From contig OZ219753.1 in NCBI GenBank assembly GCA_964291315.2, positions 288,001 to 352,000 on the forward strand: a stretch of DNA of 64,000 nt. The letters are read 5' to 3'. Positions 3,441 through 45,924 of this stretch are shown piece after piece. The position numbers and the translations under genes are program-made. Numbering within the stretch: the first letter of the stretch is position 1; every line of letters begins with the position of its first letter. The stretch comes from Candidatus Poribacteria bacterium. Its GTDB lineage: Bacteria; Poribacteria; WGA-4E; WGA-3G. The notes below the pieces were generated by a model. The model was not told the DNA's origin. It did no database searches and saw nothing but the letters and a program-made list of their open reading frames with translations.

Positions 3441-3542
3441 GGGAAACAGTGTAGGCGTACTTACCGATCTCACTCGCTTCCCCCGTGTACTCACCTGTCT
3501 CACACCTATCAGAGAAAAATCAATATCCTCACGGAGATTAGC

Positions 3543-29628: not shown

Positions 29629-32424
29629 CTAGCGCTTACCTGATTCAAGAACTTCTCTTATTATCTCTTGGCTGCGAATGAGTTGTTGGGCGGACTCTTT
29701 TAGTAGGTTAAACGATTCTGTTACACTTTGGTGAATGTTTTCTTGCTCCTTCGTGGATAGCAATGGAATGGGGAAATCTAAAATATACCGTTCATTCAAG
29801 GTTGGATAGGAAGTCCAAATTGCACCTTTTAACGACCATTTCAGGAAATGTTTAGAGCGCAGAATAGACAGGAGCGACTCTTTATTGATCTGTCCTTTTT
29901 CTTTTAAAATACAGAAGGCACTTGTCCCGATCATATCATCTTCTTGAACAATAGTAATAGCACCTCTGTATGTTCTGACCTTAGAAATGATTAGATCCCC
30001 TTTCATCAAAATACGCTTTCCACCACCGGGCAAGTTTTTGCCCAACATTTCTTGTGGTATTATATTCCCAGTGTGAATATCAACACTCCCTATTTCTACG
30101 TAGCGGTAGAACTTTTCCGGATCTATCTTGAGGCTTTCTTTAGAAAGGTTAAATTCGTCTCCGATACGCGTATGTCCACCTGAGTAACTTTTCATCAGAT
30201 TTTCTATTTCCGTGTGTTTAGGGTGAAAGTAATATGCGTCTATACGTCTTGCTTTTTTGACATCCAAATAATTTTTCTCATAAGTATTGGGCAACGGTTT
30301 CCAATCTTCCACATTTGCGTCTGCAAAAGAAAGGTTAACTTTTCTCGCCCATTCAGCAAACGATTCAGCTATGCCTTTATCTAAATATCCATTATGGCTA
30401 TGCAAATCATGGTCAATAATTGTATGTCCGTTACTGTCTAGTATATTAACCCCACTACTGTCTTTGATATATTTATAGTTGCCTGAGCTATCTTTACCAC
30501 TTTTCTCACTTGATCCAAAAAATATCGGATAATCATATTCTTTCGGACAATAATCAGAGGCATTCTCGTCCTCATTCCATTTTTGAAGCAATAGAACGCC
30601 AGTTTTCGTGTCAGTGTGAGGCTTAAAGGTTTGTTCGTGTAAACTTATTACTGCCACAATACGAGCATGCTCGGTTATAAATTCTCGAATATTTTCGTAT
30701 GTAGGAGCCCCCAGTTTACCTTGTGGTAAAACAATTGCCATTCGGCCCCCAGGCTTTAAGAAATCCAAATTACGCTCAATGAATAAAATTTCACGTCCAA
30801 CCTGGTTTTTGATTTCCCCTTTTTTGTTAGTTGCAAGATCGTATAATTGAAGGATATGATTTTCTTTGATAGCTCCTGCAAACGGAGGATTCGCCATTAC
30901 TAAATCAAATTTGAATCGCCTATTGTCGTTTTTGTCAACACGCAAACGTTCTAGTCGCTTAAAACCTTCATTGTAGGTGTCTATCCAGTTTTTATTACTT
31001 ATGCGTTCATTCCAACGCTTGTAGTCCAATGTGTTAAGTTCCAATACGTTTGTTTCACCGTCACCAGCAATTAGGTTAAGGGTTCTAGCAACTCTAACCG
31101 TTTTTTCATCGAAATCAATGCCGAATACTTTTAGGACATGTTCCTTATCTTCATCCGAAATTTGGGCATCACTGAAGAGGCTACCGGTTAATTTGAAAAT
31201 GGTATGGATGGGGAACCCACAACTGCCTGCGGCGGTATCAATCATATATTCTCCCTGCTTCGGATTTAACATCTGGACACACATATCAATAACATGTCGA
31301 GGAGTAAAATATTGCCCTTTTTCACCCTTCGCTGACTTGTTGACGAGATACTCAAATGCCTCGTCTAAAACAATTAGATTTGAATTAAATAACTTGACAT
31401 CTTGTAAACTGGCGACACATATTGCTAAATGGCTATCGGTTAGTTCAATCTTAGAGCCTTCGGAGAAAACGCCCTGCCATTTCTCTTTGCTTTTCTCGAA
31501 CAGTTCTGAAATTTTTTCTTTCAGTTCGTGTTCGCTTTGTCCAGTATTTCTGAATGCCATCTCTCTAAAATGCTCATTCGAGATCTCATGTATATCAACG
31601 TTTTGTCGCTGGCGCCGCGCTATAAATTCTTTGTCCTTGCGACTTTCATATTCGTCATAGAGTTTGGTAAAGATCAGTTTAAATGCTTCTTCAAAGACAT
31701 CTATGCCCGCGTTTGCAAGCACCTCATCTTCAAGTTCCAGGATTACTTCTTTCAAGGTTCTCCTTTCCTGAACAAGTTTATCCCTTATAATGAGTTCTTT
31801 AAGAGTAAAGCGTTCCTTAAAAATATCTTCTAACCTTTGTTGCGAATTAGGAATATCAGGGATCTCCTCAAAATGGTTGGGAGGCTTGCGATGGTAATGA
31901 GATATGTCTTTCCCGTTTGTCCATACCCCTATCGGTGCCCCTGTTGTATTGCAGTACGAACGCAATTGATCCTTGCCTTCTTTCAACTTCGGTTGTTTCA
32001 CTTCAATGATAATATCTTCGGAATCAGGCCGCTTTTCGTTTAGGACAACAATATCAGCTTTTAGATTGGTACGTCCTCTTTTAATAGCATATTCAACCCG
32101 TAACCGATTTTTAGGATAGCCGTATTGATTTTCAAGTTTCCTCACATAAAGTTGGCGTATAAGTTCCTCGGGTAGCAGGACAAATCTCTTATTTCTGATA
32201 GGGCAGTAAATCAAATACTTTCTTTTTTTTGTTTCATAATTAGTTTCAGGTTCCGTGAATAAATCTATTTGACTAACAGCTGCTATATTTGTTCCTTTTT
32301 GAAGAAAAACATCCTTACTCAAAGATTGAATTTCAAAATCGGTGAACAAAGAACAGCTATGATTGCTATCTTTCAATATGTCTGCAATAACTTGATTGAT
32401 ATTTAATCTGGCTTTTTTACTCAC
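29629..32424 (-). CDS. Fused restriction-modification enzyme: HsdR_N-type endonuclease + N6-adenine methyltransferase + one specificity (TRD) domain
   Basis: PEELIRQ...ADIVV...IIIEVK; GQYFTPR, DTAAGSCGF, NPPF; C-terminal HsdS-like segment; AT-rich; GTG 32424 follows AGAGGA. Confidence 0.88.
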   Translation of the reverse strand: MSKKARLNINQVIADILKDSNHSCSLFTDFEIQSLSKDVFLQKGTNIAAVSQIDLFTEPETNYETKKRKYLIYCPIRNKRFVLLPEELIRQLYVRKLENQYGYPKNRLRVEYAIKRGRTNLKADIVVLNEKRPDSEDIIIEVKQPKLKEGKDQLRSYCNTTGAPIGVWTNGKDISHYHRKPPNHFEEIPDIPNSQQRLEDIFKERFTLKELIIRDKLVQERRTLKEVILELEDEVLANAGIDVFEEAFKLIFTKLYDEYESRKDKEFIARRQRQNVDIHEISNEHFREMAFRNTGQSEHELKEKISELFEKSKEKWQGVFSEGSKIELTDSHLAICVASLQDVKLFNSNLIVLDEAFEYLVNKSAKGEKGQYFTPRHVIDMCVQMLNPKQGEYMIDTAAGSCGFPIHTIFKLTGSLFSDAQISDEDKEHVLKVFGIDFDEKTVRVARTLNLIAGDGETNVLELNTLDYKRWNERISNKNWIDTYNEGFKRLERLRVDKNDNRRFKFDLVMANPPFAGAIKENHILQLYDLATNKKGEIKNQVGREILFIERNLDFLKPGGRMAIVLPQGKLGAPTYENIREFITEHARIVAVISLHEQTFKPHTDTKTGVLLLQKWNEDENASDYCPKEYDYPIFFGSSEKSGKDSSGNYKYIKDSSGVNILDSNGHTIIDHDLHSHNGYLDKGIAESFAEWARKVNLSFADANVEDWKPLPNTYEKNYLDVKKARRIDAYYFHPKHTEIENLMKSYSGGHTRIGDEFNLSKESLKIDPEKFYRYVEIGSVDIHTGNIIPQEMLGKNLPGGGKRILMKGDLIISKVRTYRGAITIVQEDDMIGTSAFCILKEKGQINKESLLSILRSKHFLKWSLKGAIWTSYPTLNERYILDFPIPLLSTKEQENIHQSVTESFNLLKESAQQLIRSQEIIREVLESGKR

Positions 32425-32509
32425 TATGATTTCCTCTTTTAATTTTATTAAGCACGTATAGATTATCGCCAAAGTCTTGTTGATTGCTCCAGAGAAAGTC
32501 TGATCTCAT
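32417..32509 (-). CDS. 30-aa upstream ORF overlapping the RM gene start
   Basis: AGAAAGG RBS, then MRSDFLWSNQQDFGDNLYVLNKIKRGNHSE*; stop overlaps the RM GTG; TTGAAC-17-TATTAT upstream. Confidence 0.4.
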   Translation of the reverse strand: MRSDFLWSNQQDFGDNLYVLNKIKRGNHSE

Positions 32510-32855
32510 AAAATTACCTTTCTTTCCCATTTCGGAGTATGTGTGTTATAATATACTAATCCATCTTTTGGTTCAAGTCTAAATCCTATTCTAATGCACA
32601 GGTAGATAGATATTGCTTAGTATTCAATCTTAGACCAATTGCAAGAAACCATTTTTGGAGTAGAATTTTCGTGCCGCGAAACACTGTGCTGAATGTCATT
32701 TTGAAATTTGCTTTTCAAAACAAGTTGTAATTTCTCGTTTTTTTTGCTAAACTATTTGAACCAGTCTGGGTAAGACGGTGAAGCGTAACGCACACTCCGC
32801 CCCTACTCTCCCACCTGTCTAGGGGATAAATAGATTGGAGATATGGAATGCCGAG

Positions 32856-33116
32856 ATGGATATATCGGAAGAACTTAAAGCACGGGACGAGCGCATCGAA
32901 AGATTGGAACGCGCCCTTTTATTAATTCTGAGTCTAAACATCGGGAATCATCTTGATAAGTCTTCTAAGAATTGTTTCAGCCACATCCAGTCTTTTGCTG
33001 TAGAACAGTTAGAAGCCCTGGTTGCAGAGGCCGGTTGCACAGAAAAAGTGATCGAAGACTTGCTTGCTGCGTGTGAGAAACGTTTCCGTATTGAATTGGA
33101 TGTATTACGTCACTAA
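32856..33116 (+). CDS. Small hypothetical helical protein
   Basis: MDISEELKARDERIERLERALL...; no recognisable family. Confidence 0.55.
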   Translation: MDISEELKARDERIERLERALLLILSLNIGNHLDKSSKNCFSHIQSFAVEQLEALVAEAGCTEKVIEDLLAACEKRFRIELDVLRH

Positions 33117-33217
33117 CCTAATAAATTTGAGGGTTTTCGATTAGGATTCGAGTATAAATCTTTAAGCGACTTCAGCCTTTAAATTCGAACTTACGTCAAT
33201 TTTTAAGAGGAAAAATA

Positions 33218-34102
33218 ATGTTTAGATATTTTTTAGTCGCACTTGTTTTAGTGTTAGTTGTAGGTGCATTGACGATTGATGCGTCGATAGAAAAAGCAAT
33301 TTTACTGAAGGCACACGGTTTAAATGATGATGCAAAGCGCGAACTCATCAACTTTATTTTTTACAAGGATTCGGAAAGAAGAGACAAGCCTCGCGCGTAT
33401 TATTTACTTGGATCAATTGCCCTTGATGAGAATAAGATCCGAGCTGCTACAAAGACTTGGAGTTATATCATTGAAAAGTATCCAGATTCCGACGAGGCAC
33501 TGATAGTAAAAGAGAGAATAGACGAGTTATCCAAGGGGACTTTATCCGTTTATACAGAAAGCGTTGAAACAGCTGATTATTCCGTTGCCAAATTGTATTT
33601 GAAAAACGCAGATTTCTGGTCGAAAGATAAAGATGACAGTTGGATGATTGATTCAAGTTGGATCCCTAAAGTCGAATTCGCCTTAAAGTGGTATGATAAG
33701 GTTATCTCCGAATTTCCAAAAAGTGAAGAAGCACGCGTCGCCTATATAGGGAAGGTACGTACCTTACTGGGTTGGAAAGAATATGACGGTGACACTTACG
33801 GTATAGAGGCAAATTTTTCCAAATATATCGGAAAACTTGTCGACACTTTTCGTGATTTTGAGAGAGATTTTCCAAACGATGTTACCCTTCAGAATTGTAG
33901 GTTTCAGATCGGACAAGCCTATTTTGTTCGATCGATCATAATAGGGATAAAAAAACGTTCAGAGTCGAAAAAGTATCTTGAACAAGCAAGGCAGTGGTTT
34001 GACGAAGTTATAGCGAATTCTATAGAGAATGATTCCTTCTATCGTCAGATCTCTGAAGAGAGAAATAAGTATATCAATACTCGGATTGGTACAATGAAGT
34101 AA
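33218..34102 (+). CDS. Secreted TPR-like protein
   Basis: Signal peptide MFRYFLVALVLVLVVGA; helical repeats AYYLLG..., IIEKYPDSDEA, VISEFPKSEEA. Confidence 0.75.
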   Translation: MFRYFLVALVLVLVVGALTIDASIEKAILLKAHGLNDDAKRELINFIFYKDSERRDKPRAYYLLGSIALDENKIRAATKTWSYIIEKYPDSDEALIVKERIDELSKGTLSVYTESVETADYSVAKLYLKNADFWSKDKDDSWMIDSSWIPKVEFALKWYDKVISEFPKSEEARVAYIGKVRTLLGWKEYDGDTYGIEANFSKYIGKLVDTFRDFERDFPNDVTLQNCRFQIGQAYFVRSIIIGIKKRSESKKYLEQARQWFDEVIANSIENDSFYRQISEERNKYINTRIGTMK

Positions 34103-34232
34103 AATTTTTCAGCCCACGGAGTTACCGATGTTTTTTTACTCTAAATCTTTTTTCAAACTCACGTTATCAATTAGCCAGATTACTTTACTACTCTTCAATA
34201 ACGAGATTTCCGCAGAGATCCAATATAAAAAC

Positions 34233-35246
34233 ATGCAAACTCACGTCTATCTCTCTATAGCTGGAGAAAACAGAATCGCCATTTACGCATTCGACGCTTC
34301 CAACGGTAGCATCGAATTTCAAGAAAATATTACCGTTAGCGGTTCTCCCGGACCTCTAACTCTTTCACCGTGCCGCAACTATCTCTATGCCGGGCTTCGG
34401 TCAAGTCGAGAAATCGCGAGCTTCCGTGTTCATAAAGAGACGAAACACCTGATACACCTCCGAACAATCCAACTCGATGCAGATACATGCTATATTGCAA
34501 CCGACAAGACTGGGAATTTCCTGCTCTCTGCCTATTACGCCGCCGGCAAAGTCACCGTTCATACCATCGGTGACGATGGAACTGTGCAGGGTGAACCGCT
34601 TCAAACTGTTGAAACCGACATACATGCACACGCTATCGAAACAGATGCTTCAAACCGATACGCCTTCGTCCCGCATACTGTCCCGCGAAATGCTATCTAT
34701 CAATTTCATTTCGACGAACAGACAGGCACGCTCACCGAGAATCTAATGGGCAATCTCAATCCGGATGCTCCTATCGGCCCACGACATTTCTGTTTTCATC
34801 CGAGTGAGCCGATCTGCTACTTCTCAAATGAGCAAGGTTCTAGTGTTTCTAGCTATATGCTCGATGAAAAAGAACATCCAGGAAACTTAATGATTTTGCA
34901 ACGAGACCTCTTTACCCTTCCCGAAGATTTTGTGGAAGATAATACTTGTGCCCAAATCCACATCGATCCACAAGGGATGTTTCTCTATGTTTCCAACCGC
35001 GGGCATGACAGCATCGCAGCATTCACAATTGACGCGGATAGCGGGAAATTAAGCGCTATTGGACATCAGACCACCGAACCTACACCGCGCGTCTTCAATA
35101 TTGACGCAACAGGAAATTTCCTCTTTGTCGGCGGACAAGGTTCAGGGAGACTCGCCACCTATCGCATCAACCGAGAAACCGGGGAATTATCGCCACTCGT
35201 TGCCTACGAGGTCGGCAAAAACCCCATGTGGATACTTTTTATCTAA
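34233..35246 (+). CDS. pgl: Lactonase family beta-propeller (6-phosphogluconolactonase-like)
   Basis: HAHAI, GPRHFCFHP, FLYVSNRGHDSIA, PRVFNID. Confidence 0.85.
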   Translation: MQTHVYLSIAGENRIAIYAFDASNGSIEFQENITVSGSPGPLTLSPCRNYLYAGLRSSREIASFRVHKETKHLIHLRTIQLDADTCYIATDKTGNFLLSAYYAAGKVTVHTIGDDGTVQGEPLQTVETDIHAHAIETDASNRYAFVPHTVPRNAIYQFHFDEQTGTLTENLMGNLNPDAPIGPRHFCFHPSEPICYFSNEQGSSVSSYMLDEKEHPGNLMILQRDLFTLPEDFVEDNTCAQIHIDPQGMFLYVSNRGHDSIAAFTIDADSGKLSAIGHQTTEPTPRVFNIDATGNFLFVGGQGSGRLATYRINRETGELSPLVAYEVGKNPMWILFI

Positions 35247-42030: not shown

Positions 42031-42059
42031 TTGACAAACTCGATATTTTATTATATACT
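42031..42059 (+). promoter_or_regulatory. Sigma70 promoter for the leader ORF and FGE-repeat gene
   Basis: TTGACA 42031-42036, 17 nt, TATACT 42054-42059. Confidence 0.7.
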
Positions 42060-42244: not shown

Positions 42245-42306
42245 CTTCACAAACAATAAGTAATAAACATACGTCTGTGTATCTTCACAGAGAAAGGAAG
42301 AGTAAA

Positions 42307-45300
42307 ATGAAACGGACTGTGTTGGCTCTGTCTACACTCGCCGCATTCCTGTTTGCGAGCGTCTCGTTCGCAGCGGCAGAATGGCAGACGAACCTTGTAA
42401 CAAATAAGACACAAGAAGAAATATATGTAATCAGTGCCACGTGGAAGGCGGCGGATACCAAGAAAGGCATCCCCGCAGGTTTCTGGACGCGTGGCTCCTA
42501 TCGTATCAAGCCCGGGAAAGCCAAAGTATTTTATTCGTGGTCAACGAACAACATTTATTTTCGTATTTCAAACGCTGCGGGTGCGCTAAAATCGAATAGG
42601 AACGCGACGACGTTCCCGTTTTGGGTGCATCCGGATCGCTCTTTCCGTGTTGTCTCGGAGAGCGTTGATTCGTCAGTGACGTTGGATCAACTGCTGTATT
42701 CGGATCGCTCGGGCAATCAGTTGGTGCACTCGGATGGGTTTACAAGCTATTTGGGTGGCAGTTCCGTGGTAGTGACATCTGATTGGGTATCGCTGGATGC
42801 GGTTCCGACGGCTCCAGCTAATGATGAGCTGGGCGATGGAGAGAGTGGAAACGCTGGTGAGACCGATGCTGTTCCTGAATGGATAGCGAGCTCGATAACA
42901 AATGCGACGGAAGCAGACCTGTATGTGGTCTCCTCCACGTGGAAGCTGGAGAAATCGAAGAAGGGGTGGCCTGAAGGGTTTCGGACGCGCGGGACGTATC
43001 GTATCAAGCCTGGTAAGTCGAGAAAGTTTTATTCGTGGTCAGATAACGCTATCTATTTTCGTATTTCAAACGCTGCGGGAGCGCTAAAATCGGAGGTGAG
43101 CACGGAGACGTTTGGGTTCTGGTTGCATCCGCGTCGTTCGTTTCGTTTGGTGTCGGATGCGATAGGTGCGGCAGTAGAGCAGTCGGATTTGATCTACTCG
43201 AATCGTTCGGTGTCGAATTTAGAGCGTTCGGATGGTTTCATGACATATGAGAGCGGTTCTGAAGTGGTAGTGACATCTGATTGGGTGTCAGTATCTGCTG
43301 TAGATGCTGTGAATGCTGGAGAGGATGGCACTCCAACGTCTCTCGAAACGCCAGCGGCTCCTGCGGGCATGGTATTAATCCCTGCTGGCACCTTCCAGAT
43401 GGGCAGTCCCGGCAACATGGGCGATATGAATGAACGCCCTATGCACACAGTGTCCTTAGATGGGTTTTATATGGATGCACACGAAGTGACAAACGCAGAA
43501 TATGCTGCGTTCCTCAATGCTATCGGCAAACACGCAGATGCTGGCCATACCTATATGGCTATCGGTACCAGTTATGACAACTATGGATGCATTGCGTTAG
43601 TAGATGGCTCGTATCGTGTGAAGTCGGGGTATGAGAATTATCCTGTCAGTTATGTGACTTGGTATGGTGCGATGGCATATGCTGTTTGGGCGGGCAAGCG
43701 TTTGCCGACCGAGGCGGAGTGGGAATATGCTGCGCGCGGCGGGTTATCTGGCAAGCTATACCCCTGGGGCGACACGATTGATAGCACGCAGGCGAACTAC
43801 AACTATGATGGAAGACGCATCAATAATGTCGGTAGTCTGACAGCCGTTGGCAGTTATGCGGCGAATGGTTATGGTCTGTATGATATGGCGGGTAATGTCT
43901 GGGAGTGGTGTCTGGATGAGTATGATATTGGGTTCTATGCGGAATCTGCTGCCCGGAACCCGTTGTCGGGTGGGTCTAGTATTCAGGGGCTAGTAGCTAA
44001 CTATACAGAAACTAGTTCTGATGAGTTCAACGTCTTGCGTGGCGGCTCTTTGATCAATACACGTCTGGGCGTGCGGGTCGCGACGCGCGGCTTCAGTAGG
44101 GTATCGGACCCTTACTTCTACAATGGTTTCCGTTGTGTGCGTTCTGTCTCTACGGTTCCTGCGAATACTGAGACTCCGACGCCTCCACCGCCTCCGAAAC
44201 CTGCAACGCCGCCGAAAACCTCTGGCGTTCCTGCGGGCATGGCGCTGATCCCCGCCGGTACCTTCCAGATGGGCAGCACCACCGGCGATGCGGATGAAAG
44301 CCCGGTTCACGCTGTGTCTTTAGATGCATTTTACATGGATACCCACGAAGTGACAAACGCAGAATATGCGGCATTCCTCAATGCGAAGGGCAAACACGCT
44401 GAGGCAGGCAAGAATTGGGTGAATCTCGCAGATACTCTCATAGGCATCGCGTTAGTAGACGGCGCGTATCGTGCGAAGTCGGGGTATGCGAATCTTCCTG
44501 TCGTTAAGGTCTCTTGGTATGGTGCGATGGCTTATGCTGCGTGGGCGGGCAAACGGTTACCAAGCGAGGCGGAGTGGGAATACGCTGCACGCGGTGGGCT
44601 AGCAGGCAAGCAATATCCGTGGGGCGACACTATAGACGCAACCCAGGCGAACTATGGTAGGAACACTGGCGGTCTGACAGCCGTTGGCAGTTATGCTGCG
44701 AACGGATATGGTCTGTATGACATGACTGGGAATGTATTTGAGTGGTGTCTGGATGGCTATAACGAGGGTTTCTATGCGATTTCGCCTGTGCATAACCCTT
44801 TGACGGGTGCTGATAGTGAGACGATAGATGCATATGTGGACGTCAGCTCTGCTCGTGTGTTGCGCGGCGGCTCGTATCTGTATTCGGCGCAGCTTGCCCG
44901 TGTATCGAATCGTGACTATAGTTTCCCGATGAGTATGGGCAATGATCTCGGTTTCCGTTGTGTGCGTTCTGTGTCTACGCCCTCTGCAAATGCTGAGATA
45001 CCGACGCCGCTGAAACCTGCAACGCCGCCGAAAACCTCCGTTGTTCCTGCGGGCATGGCGCTGATTCCTGCTGGCACCTTCCAGATGGGCAGCACCACCG
45101 GCCGTCTAGATGAACGCCCGATTCACACAGTGTCTTTAGATGCGTTTTATATGGACACACATGAAGTGACAAACGCAGAATATGCGGCGTTCCTCAATGC
45201 GAAGGGCAAACACACCGATGCTGGCCAGACCTATTTGGATATCGGGAGCAATGGTGTGCGCATTGCGTTAGTAGATGGCTCGTATCGTGTGAAGTCGGGG

Positions 45301-45810
45301 TATGAGAATCACCCTGTTGTTCAGGTCTTTTGGTATGGTGCGATGGCGTATGCGGAGTGGGCAGGTAAGCGGCTCCCCACCGAGGCGGAGTGGGAGTATG
45401 CTGCGCGCGGTGGGCTCTCCGGTAAGAAATATCCGTGGGGCGACACGATAGACAGCACGCGTGCGAACTACACTTGGAATGTTAGAAGCACAACAAAGGT
45501 AGGAATCTATGCGGCGAACGGTTATGGTCTGTATGATATGGCGGGGAATGTCCAGGAGTGGTGTCTGGATGTGTATGATCCGGACTTCTATGCGAAATCT
45601 GCAGCTCAGAACCCGTTGTCGGGTGCGTCCAGTATTCAGTGGTTGTTAGATAACTATACAACAGAAACTGGGGATTCTGCCCGCGTCTTGCGTGGCGGCG
45701 ACTGGCTCAGTCCAGCGGAGTGGGTGCGGGTCGCCTTGCGCACCTACATTAGGGCACCGTTCACTGACAACATCGTCGGTTTCCGTTGTGTGAAGCCTGT
45801 TTCTCCTTGA
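42307..45810 (+). CDS. Secreted protein: 2 copies of an unknown ~140-aa domain + 3 FGE-sulfatase (C-type lectin fold) domains; candidate DGR target
   Basis: Signal peptide MKRTVLALSTLAAFLFASVSFA; three units IPAGTFQMGS...EVTNAEY...RLP(T/S)EAEWEYAARGG...YGLYDMxGNVxEW...VLRGG...GFRCV; Pro/Thr-rich linkers. Confidence 0.92.
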   Translation: MKRTVLALSTLAAFLFASVSFAAAEWQTNLVTNKTQEEIYVISATWKAADTKKGIPAGFWTRGSYRIKPGKAKVFYSWSTNNIYFRISNAAGALKSNRNATTFPFWVHPDRSFRVVSESVDSSVTLDQLLYSDRSGNQLVHSDGFTSYLGGSSVVVTSDWVSLDAVPTAPANDELGDGESGNAGETDAVPEWIASSITNATEADLYVVSSTWKLEKSKKGWPEGFRTRGTYRIKPGKSRKFYSWSDNAIYFRISNAAGALKSEVSTETFGFWLHPRRSFRLVSDAIGAAVEQSDLIYSNRSVSNLERSDGFMTYESGSEVVVTSDWVSVSAVDAVNAGEDGTPTSLETPAAPAGMVLIPAGTFQMGSPGNMGDMNERPMHTVSLDGFYMDAHEVTNAEYAAFLNAIGKHADAGHTYMAIGTSYDNYGCIALVDGSYRVKSGYENYPVSYVTWYGAMAYAVWAGKRLPTEAEWEYAARGGLSGKLYPWGDTIDSTQANYNYDGRRINNVGSLTAVGSYAANGYGLYDMAGNVWEWCLDEYDIGFYAESAARNPLSGGSSIQGLVANYTETSSDEFNVLRGGSLINTRLGVRVATRGFSRVSDPYFYNGFRCVRSVSTVPANTETPTPPPPPKPATPPKTSGVPAGMALIPAGTFQMGSTTGDADESPVHAVSLDAFYMDTHEVTNAEYAAFLNAKGKHAEAGKNWVNLADTLIGIALVDGAYRAKSGYANLPVVKVSWYGAMAYAAWAGKRLPSEAEWEYAARGGLAGKQYPWGDTIDATQANYGRNTGGLTAVGSYAANGYGLYDMTGNVFEWCLDGYNEGFYAISPVHNPLTGADSETIDAYVDVSSARVLRGGSYLYSAQLARVSNRDYSFPMSMGNDLGFRCVRSVSTPSANAEIPTPLKPATPPKTSVVPAGMALIPAGTFQMGSTTGRLDERPIHTVSLDAFYMDTHEVTNAEYAAFLNAKGKHTDAGQTYLDIGSNGVRIALVDGSYRVKSGYENHPVVQVFWYGAMAYAEWAGKRLPTEAEWEYAARGGLSGKKYPWGDTIDSTRANYTWNVRSTTKVGIYAANGYGLYDMAGNVQEWCLDVYDPDFYAKSAAQNPLSGASSIQWLLDNYTTETGDSARVLRGGDWLSPAEWVRVALRTYIRAPFTDNIVGFRCVKPVSP
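43354..45792 (+). repeat. Three direct repeats of ~0.8 kb (FGE/CLec domain units)
   Basis: Near-identical DNA blocks such as gaagtgacaaacgcagaatatgc and ggtttccgttgtgtg occur three times. Confidence 0.92.
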
Positions 45811-45875
45811 AACTTTATTGCCGAATGCGTTTTATCTTGAGATAAATCGCTGAAAGGCGTTGAAGATACAAATTA

Positions 45876-45924
45876 GGGCGTGATAGCGGTTAGGCTTTTG
45901 CTGACAGCTTTCACGCCCATTTTT
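45876..45924 (+). terminator. Probable intrinsic terminator after the FGE-repeat gene
   Basis: GGGCGTGA...TCACGCCC stem followed by ATTTTT. Confidence 0.65.

Follow-up and report, generated by a model that had tools for sequence, protein, structure and literature searches.

The systems closest to the one described here are diversity-generating retroelements (DGRs) whose targets belong to the FGE/C-type lectin (CLec) fold. Treponema denticola carries a chromosomal DGR with remote and ‘suspicious’ FGE-sulfatase targets, some of which have excess mutations or derive from another type of template repeat (TR) (PMC4891356; PMC5758913). Wu et al. reported a triple-FGE DGR target (PMC5758913), and Thiohalocapsa PB-PSB1 has three-CLec targets of its DGR 4/5, for which diversification in trans was inferred (PMC10907252). 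In cyanobacteria, remote variable proteins (VPs) occur together with VP homologues that keep remnant homology between the TR and the variable region (VR), and removal of the machinery after selection of a variant has been proposed (PMC7517822). Here, we describe a gene at 42307..45810 (forward strand) whose 1167-aa product is probably exported and carries three FGE/CLec domains. It lies in a window of 64,000 nucleotides from a Candidatus Poribacteria bacterium (GCA_964291315.2, contig OZ219753.1, positions 288,001 to 352,000). Coordinates are window positions unless prefixed with a contig (C1, C3 or C4); the window is C4:288001-352000 of this source genome, G000.

The locus resembles the T. 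denticola TvpA (PDB 2y3c) system in combining a chromosomal DGR with scattered FGE/CLec genes, some with excess changes at sites other than template adenines (non-A sites). Unlike that system, it holds three tandem heads of different history in one protein, and the family is far larger, with 67 PF03781 matches in the genome and 44 full-length variable blocks. It shares with the triple-FGE and DGR 4/5 targets the arrangement of three tandem FGE/CLec domains with variable regions in one protein. However, the VRs of those targets agree with their TR at every non-A site and are variable in reads, whereas here there is no such match and a footprint is seen in two of three blocks; moreover, the N-terminal part is an uncharacterized beta-repeat here and a vWA domain there. 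Dispersed paralogues with remnant TR homology are also a feature of the cyanobacterial remote VPs. The remote matches reported in cyanobacteria are, however, confined to gene 3' ends and lie mostly in kinase fusions, whereas one footprint here is internal and the protein is apparently exported. Remote, triple-FGE and aged targets are all already in print. We found no publication on DGRs or FGE expansion in Poribacteria, in a literature search that ran largely without subscription papers and DGR-survey supplements.

The first-pass annotation, made from the window alone, had drawn attention to three equal-length variable cassettes in this gene. We recovered all three 108-nt blocks on the forward strand, in frame between VLRGG and GFRCV and with no indels: block 1 (internal) at 44032..44139, block 2 at 44857..44964 and block 3 (C-terminal) at 45685..45792. 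Its counts were reproduced exactly: between blocks 1 and 3 the residue changes in 20 of the 26 internal codons and the third base is kept in 16 of these 20, one run of 13 matching third bases spans 11 residue changes, and block 2 differs from the other two at 18-19 of 26 third bases. Mismatches between blocks 1 and 3 fall 15/14/5 on the three codon positions. Much of the scaffold around the blocks had been called near-identical, which was an overstatement: domains 1 and 3 are identical at 161 of 210 residues (77%) and, of their 147 synonymous third positions, 34 differ. The third-base pattern that had been taken as a sign of a DGR is real, but it stands only modestly above the scaffold, with 26 third bases kept among 49 changed codons (Fisher p=0.033), and the claim therefore needed a template.

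No reverse transcriptase (RT) had been seen in the window, and the two RVT_1 matches in the genome (C3:32128-32769 and C4:495366-496007) both lie outside it. The genome holds an RT, avd and a TR colinear with the blocks. The C3 locus consists, in order, of an FGE target (33431-34822), avd (32976-33323), the RT (31921-32979) and the TR (31843-31736), a 108-nt AAC-rich repeat. The avd product passes the NCBIfam model NF033474 with 112 bits against a cut-off of 80 bits, and in NCBIfam the RT gave no match to a DGR-specific RT model. This cassette looks intact, and a second copy on C4, 98% identical, lies 161 kb from the gene. The adjacent VRs differ from the TR almost only at adenines, with changes at 23/32 adenines and 2/76 other sites at C3:33556, and at 15/32 and 1/76 at C4:494582. 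The genome carries a DGR, with an RT beside avd and a TR, and an adjacent VR restricted almost entirely to adenine changes. The seven closest relatives of the RT in GTDB genomes are from Poribacteria (78-83% identity); the RT is present in 4 of 36 congeners and in none of the 24 other genomes of the order searched, and the top metagenome match is only 62% identical.

The cassette copies show further peculiarities. At the TR position of the C4 copy (C4:496292-496399, locus L001:2427-2534), 13 of 32 adenines are changed, all in the 3' half, and none of the 76 other sites, and the repeat runs in frame into a downstream headless FGE array. A mirror case is found in congener G022 (L027:2715-2819), where the TR has a VR-like 5' half. 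A third DGR island (C3:224128-227375) has the same upstream neighbors, a template-matched target, a hairpin and only the first avd codons, the RT and TR being gone.

The decisive signal in the gene is the template found in the genome, not the third-base statistic. Both strands of the genome were scanned exhaustively, without gaps and with changes at A tolerated; the C3 TR was the best template for block 1 (14 non-A mismatches; next best 22) and for block 3 (11; next best 19), and the best template for block 2 was a paralogue rather than the TR. Compared with the C3 TR, block 1 differs at 18/32 template adenines and 14/76 non-A sites, block 2 at 19/32 and 24/76, and block 3 at 19/32 and 11/76. 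The differences of blocks 1 and 3 are enriched at template adenines, with Fisher p=1.4e-4 and 5e-6, respectively, although this enrichment is confounded by protein constraint and distant paralogues reach p~0.004 (C4:2811589). Template adenines sit at exposed residues, so that even distant paralogues appear enriched, and we therefore built a null in which the amino acids stay as they are and the codons are redrawn from the usage pooled over 48 scaffolds. Under this null, inner non-A mismatches numbered 11 against 24.1 expected in block 1 and 8 against 20.7 in block 3 (p=0.0002 each), and 21 against 22.2 in block 2 (p=0.37). The third base of the 12 AAY codons of the TR is kept in 10, 5 and 10 cases in blocks 1, 2 and 3. 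Blocks 1 and 3 differ from each other at 23/32 template-A sites and 11/76 others (p=1.3e-8). We are highly confident that blocks 1 and 3 are of DGR origin.

These results bear on a reading that dispenses with retrohoming, in which the domains descend from old paralogues and their tips diverged by positive selection and gene conversion on the binding surface. The confounded A-site enrichment would suit it, as would the mosaic nature of the family, and block 2 fits it well. In blocks 1 and 3, it is largely refuted by the synonymous choices, which follow the TR with the amino acids fixed. Template-A first and second codon positions differ between these blocks at 22 of 29 sites, compared with 23% of synonymous scaffold sites. 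No conversion donor is evident either, as the best match of the block 1 tile reaches 76/120 nt and is tied between the TR and two blocks. We regard this explanation as very improbable. Block 2, judged from its codons and relatives, is a fixed conserved module that is not detectably DGR-written; the idea that all three blocks are DGR cassettes thus stands for blocks 1 and 3, which carry the template-adenine footprint, and falls for block 2, which has no detectable footprint and belongs to a conserved subfamily.

The number of A-site differences between blocks 1 and 3 is what permutation gives (22.0 +/- 2.5) and lies within the range of template-matched pairs (18-26). Since the two blocks are independent at A sites, each was written separately. 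The nearest other block in the genome has at least 18 A-site differences from block 1 or block 3, and therefore neither copies an extant head. Taken together, the two findings call for at least one full rewriting after the split of the domain 1 and 3 scaffolds. Duplication of an already diversified head, which had been offered as one origin of the pattern, is disfavored for these two blocks by their independence.

We consider it likely that blocks 1 and 3 are no longer live targets but aged, fixed heads. Inner non-A mismatches form a gradient over the 44 full-length 108-nt blocks of the genome, ranging from 0 to 30: seven blocks have 0-1, six have 2-4, eight, including blocks 1 and 3, have 5-11, and the remaining 23 have at least 12. 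Work with a reconstituted BPP-1 DGR showed 100% co-transfer of non-A markers (PMC12875486), and a fresh event from the present TR should therefore erase the mismatches in a block. The published standard for remote targets admits only A-to-N differences from the TR, with minor exceptions (PMC5758913), and the 14, 24 and 11 non-A mismatches out of 76 place blocks 1, 2 and 3 outside it. A downstream hairpin is required in BPP-1 (PMC3240598); the longest perfect stems after blocks 1, 2 and 3 are 3, 3 and 6 bp, compared with 11, 11 and 8 bp at targets in the cassette position, and similar hairpins follow several targets in other Poribacteria. In two runs, X1 and X2, block 1 lies on single zero-difference unitigs (43942-44289 and 43894-44298), as does block 3 (45523-45812/13), at unitig depths near 3500 and 1000.

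The gene had originally been proposed as a current remote target, and a version of that proposal would have the blocks serve the C3 DGR today, with non-A mismatches tolerated and left behind by short-patch integration. The C3 TR is indeed their best template, the C3 cassette looks intact and a remote template-matched block exists on C1. However, blocks 1 and 3 carry 14 and 11 non-A mismatches where template-matched blocks carry 0-4, and these are interleaved with A-site changes along the whole block. The cassette hairpin is missing, no abundant variants were seen in the contigs compared, and both the complete co-transfer of non-A markers in the reconstituted DGR and the A-only standard for remote targets speak against it. 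Current targeting by the C3 DGR is therefore very unlikely.

There is evidence of writing at a distance elsewhere in the genome, and a hint of writing at internal positions. The best remote target, the block at C1:562168-562275 (locus L213), differs from the TR at 13/32 adenines and 4/76 non-A sites on a contig without an RT, and has no hairpin. It departs from the TR at 1/32 third positions, whereas its scaffold departs from that of a cassette target at 44/109 synonymous sites (p=1.4e-5), and this block provides sequence evidence that trans writing probably happens in this genome. An internal block, C4:500495, has no inner non-A mismatches and shares a read-through junction with C4:1233682; the two differ at 37/155 synonymous scaffold sites and at 25 A sites, which suggests internal writing. 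The 3' flank of block 1 is of the domain 2 linker type rather than the cognate sequence or hairpin on the side of the initiation of mutagenic homing (IMH) site, and would fit later joining by recombination at the conserved domain end.

The account that we prefer, and hold to be reasonably probable, is that the gene is a mosaic of aged DGR-written heads 1 and 3 and a conserved head 2, within an expanded family of exported, non-enzymatic FGE/CLec proteins. RT and Avd would have copied template RNA with errors at adenines, and two independent rounds of replacement by the complementary DNA (cDNA) would have given domains 1 and 3 their tips. The rounds could have taken place in trans, with this gene as the target, or in precursor genes that predate the joining of the domains. 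The template used may have been an ancestor of the present TR or a sister copy that differed from it slightly. Retrohoming from the present TR would then have stopped, and paralogue recombination, mostly at conserved domain ends, would have put heads 1, 2 and 3 behind a shared N-terminal module.

A number of observations weigh against this account. By a third-position clock, blocks 1 and 3 are not significantly younger than their own scaffolds: compared with the nearest template-matched scaffold, the counts are 5/32 against 38/134 (p=0.1) for block 1 and 7/32 against 44/132 (p=0.15) for block 3, and writing in place at this gene is therefore no more than a possibility. The clade of domains 1 and 3 is weak in the 48-domain tree (SH-aLRT 82, UFBoot 67). 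The hairpin is also absent after the template-matched blocks C4:500495, C4:501341 and C1:562168, so its absence is no proof of retirement. The read comparison covers contigs only, from three runs (X1, X2 and X3), with 23 of about 1770 pieces examined; X1 and X2 belong to a single study, which may have supplied the assembly, and contigs drop rare variants. A 213-nt piece from X3 (record 22, on 45616-45828, depth 748) covers block 3 with 13 differences. Finally, the same four inner non-A differences from the TR occur in blocks 1 and 3 (44085/45738, 44099/45752, 44101/45754 and 44112/45765), three of them C-to-G, and the present TR does not account for them. The X3 piece itself looks like a related strain or a paralogue, and its depth is below those of X1 and X2.

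Non-A states in common, together with A sites that vary independently, are what one would expect from a shared template slightly different from the present TR. The expected sharing is 0.6-0.8 states, giving P=0.002 with a uniform null and 0.003 with a site-weighted one, in a test that is post hoc, and none of the other 42 blocks has all four states. One of 73 comparable pairs also shares four states, at 14 mismatches each, and seven non-A differences remain private to block 1 and four to block 3. Such a sister template was absent from the genome scan and from 42 TR-like 108-nt segments (215 loci, Poribacteria included). The assembly is 95.2% complete in four contigs, and the sister template may have belonged to a cassette copy that was lost or that lies in the 5% not assembled. 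If such a template was real, the distance of blocks 1 and 3 from the C3 TR overstates their age.

Taken further, the same observations could mean that a sister template is still writing blocks 1 and 3, or did so very recently, and that it lies in sequence missing from the assembly or in other cells of the same population. The shared states combined with A-site independence speak for this, as do the incomplete assembly, the X3 piece and a cassette that has been copied at least three times, with one copy having lost avd, RT and TR and another having a half-overwritten TR. Against it, no better template appeared in the genome or among the TR-like segments, the private non-A differences would still need explaining, another pair shares as many states in a test chosen after inspection of the data, and the unitigs are unbroken in X1 and X2. 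We consider live targeting by a sister template unlikely.

The mosaic nature of the gene is seen in domain 2 (44236..44967). Its tiles match C4:1412xxx at 107-117 of 120 nt and its flanks are closest to other genes; at the protein level, 194 of 206 residues are identical to an internal domain of the paralogue C4:1412542, with tree support of 99/100. The tip of block 2 differs from that of C4:1412542 at only five A sites, and its subfamily is common to several genes. In tile painting, the nearest paralogue changes along the gene. Blocks were extracted by pattern, giving 56 segments of which one is false (C1:460138), and some Pfam matches were missed (e.g. C4:776299); ten real blocks with indels were excluded from the 108-nt tests, and seven segments without the start motif from the 48-domain tree.

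Such a patchwork might also arise as an assembly chimera of paralogues. The assembly is of metagenome type, many paralogues are 75-90% identical, none of the contigs listed spans the whole gene and the protein cluster has a single member. On the other hand, the frame is open for 1177 codons, zero-difference unitigs cross from block 1 through the linker into domain 2 (X1 and X2) and from the linker into domain 3 (X2), and the identity of domain 2 to its paralogue is about 90% rather than 100%. The chance that the three-domain gene is an artifact of this kind is very slim, the lowest that we assign to any explanation.

At E<=1e-40, G000 has at least 55 FGE matches, compared with 10-28 in 24 congeners. 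DGR carriage is not supported across the genus as the explanation of this expansion, as the RT-bearing congeners G011, G021 and G022 have only 15, 21 and 17 matches in their fragmented assemblies. Among 60 relatives, with four candidates scored per genome, no orthologue exceeded about 70% identity over a whole single domain, no non-self protein among the 120 matches listed exceeded 72% identity, and an exact 35-nt pattern was found in 0 metagenome contigs. A larger version of the pattern is seen at C4:2729179-2733267, which encodes a 1612-aa protein with five FGE heads of 8-12 non-A mismatches each. In-frame indels of 3-9 nt occur in the TR-close blocks C3:29441, C3:30579, C4:497786, C4:497027, C4:1234522 and C4:2076353, and the variable region therefore also changes in length.

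More tentatively, the DGR could act in this lineage as a hit-and-run head factory. Copies of the cassette with slightly different templates would arise, write tips both in cis and in trans, internal tips among them, and disappear again. The frozen heads would be shuffled and strung into a fixed genomic library, with over 50 binding domains carried by one common export module; in blocks 1 and 3 one would then see the trace of a missing sister template, and in block 2 an older head that became fixed and has spread between genes. We put this forward as a possibility that we do not favor. More generally, the gene indicates that DGR output can outlast targeting, with separately written tips persisting as fixed modules that are recombined into multivalent exported proteins. 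The dated series in this genome, which runs from exact template match to no trace, makes the fate of DGR targets after diversification testable.

The open reading frame spans 42277-45810, open from a GTG at 42277, and the probable start is the ATG at 42307, which is also the start in the protein collection. Three PF03781 stretches in the protein score 623 bits, and domain 1 (43363..44142), domain 2 and domain 3 (45052..45795) each have their variable block at the C-terminal end; Pro/Thr linkers join the three domains. By sequence comparison, domain 3 matches the TvpA structure (PDB 2y3c) with E=5.6e-14. The best PDB sequence matches are formylglycine-generating enzymes of the same Pfam family (PDB 6muj and 2q17, E~1e-38). 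The cysteine pair of these enzymes is catalytic. Unlike in the enzymes, where the pair follows the RGG motif at a place that falls in the variable block, it is absent from all three blocks, domain 3 included, according to the FGE alignment and the block translations. The lack of this pair suggests that the heads bind rather than catalyze, and we infer that the product, at the cell surface or secreted, is a multivalent binding protein whose three specificities are fixed.

Upstream of the heads, a probable signal peptide (42307..42378), recognized by its basic start, hydrophobic core and Ala-rich cleavage site, is followed by two copies of a 141-aa repeat with no Pfam match, at 42379..42801 and 42877..43299, which share 59% amino acid identity. 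An alignment-based model of the repeat is all-beta with a predicted local distance difference test score (pLDDT) of 95.4, and a single-sequence model of the N-terminal part reached a pLDDT of 29. Foldseek returned no PDB match for the repeat model at E<=0.001; a weak DUF1036 match in Atlas (0.90) is a lead only. The repeat has 47 tblastn matches in G000 and 85 representatives elsewhere, and in the 33 representatives scanned the domains that come after it are of the FGE, LRR, WD40, dockerin, cohesin, Ig-like or FlgD type. This suggests a general module at the front of exported proteins of modular build.

A candidate sigma-70-like promoter (42031..42059, forward strand) lies upstream of the gene and matches the consensus at 11 of 12 positions, a consensus match only, with 10 such sites found against 4.6 expected in shuffles. 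The neighboring genes are presumably an AddB-like nuclease gene on one side and sodA on the other, named by reading their translations. A 6-bp perfect inverted repeat (45831..45846) lies 38 nt 3' of block 3; a 10-bp version follows the paralogue C4:2771774. The 6-bp repeat is distinct from the 8-11-bp hairpin of cassette-adjacent targets. Further 3' of the gene, an imperfect palindrome (45876-45918), which is REP-like or terminator-like, recurs after several FGE genes and beside DGR loci.

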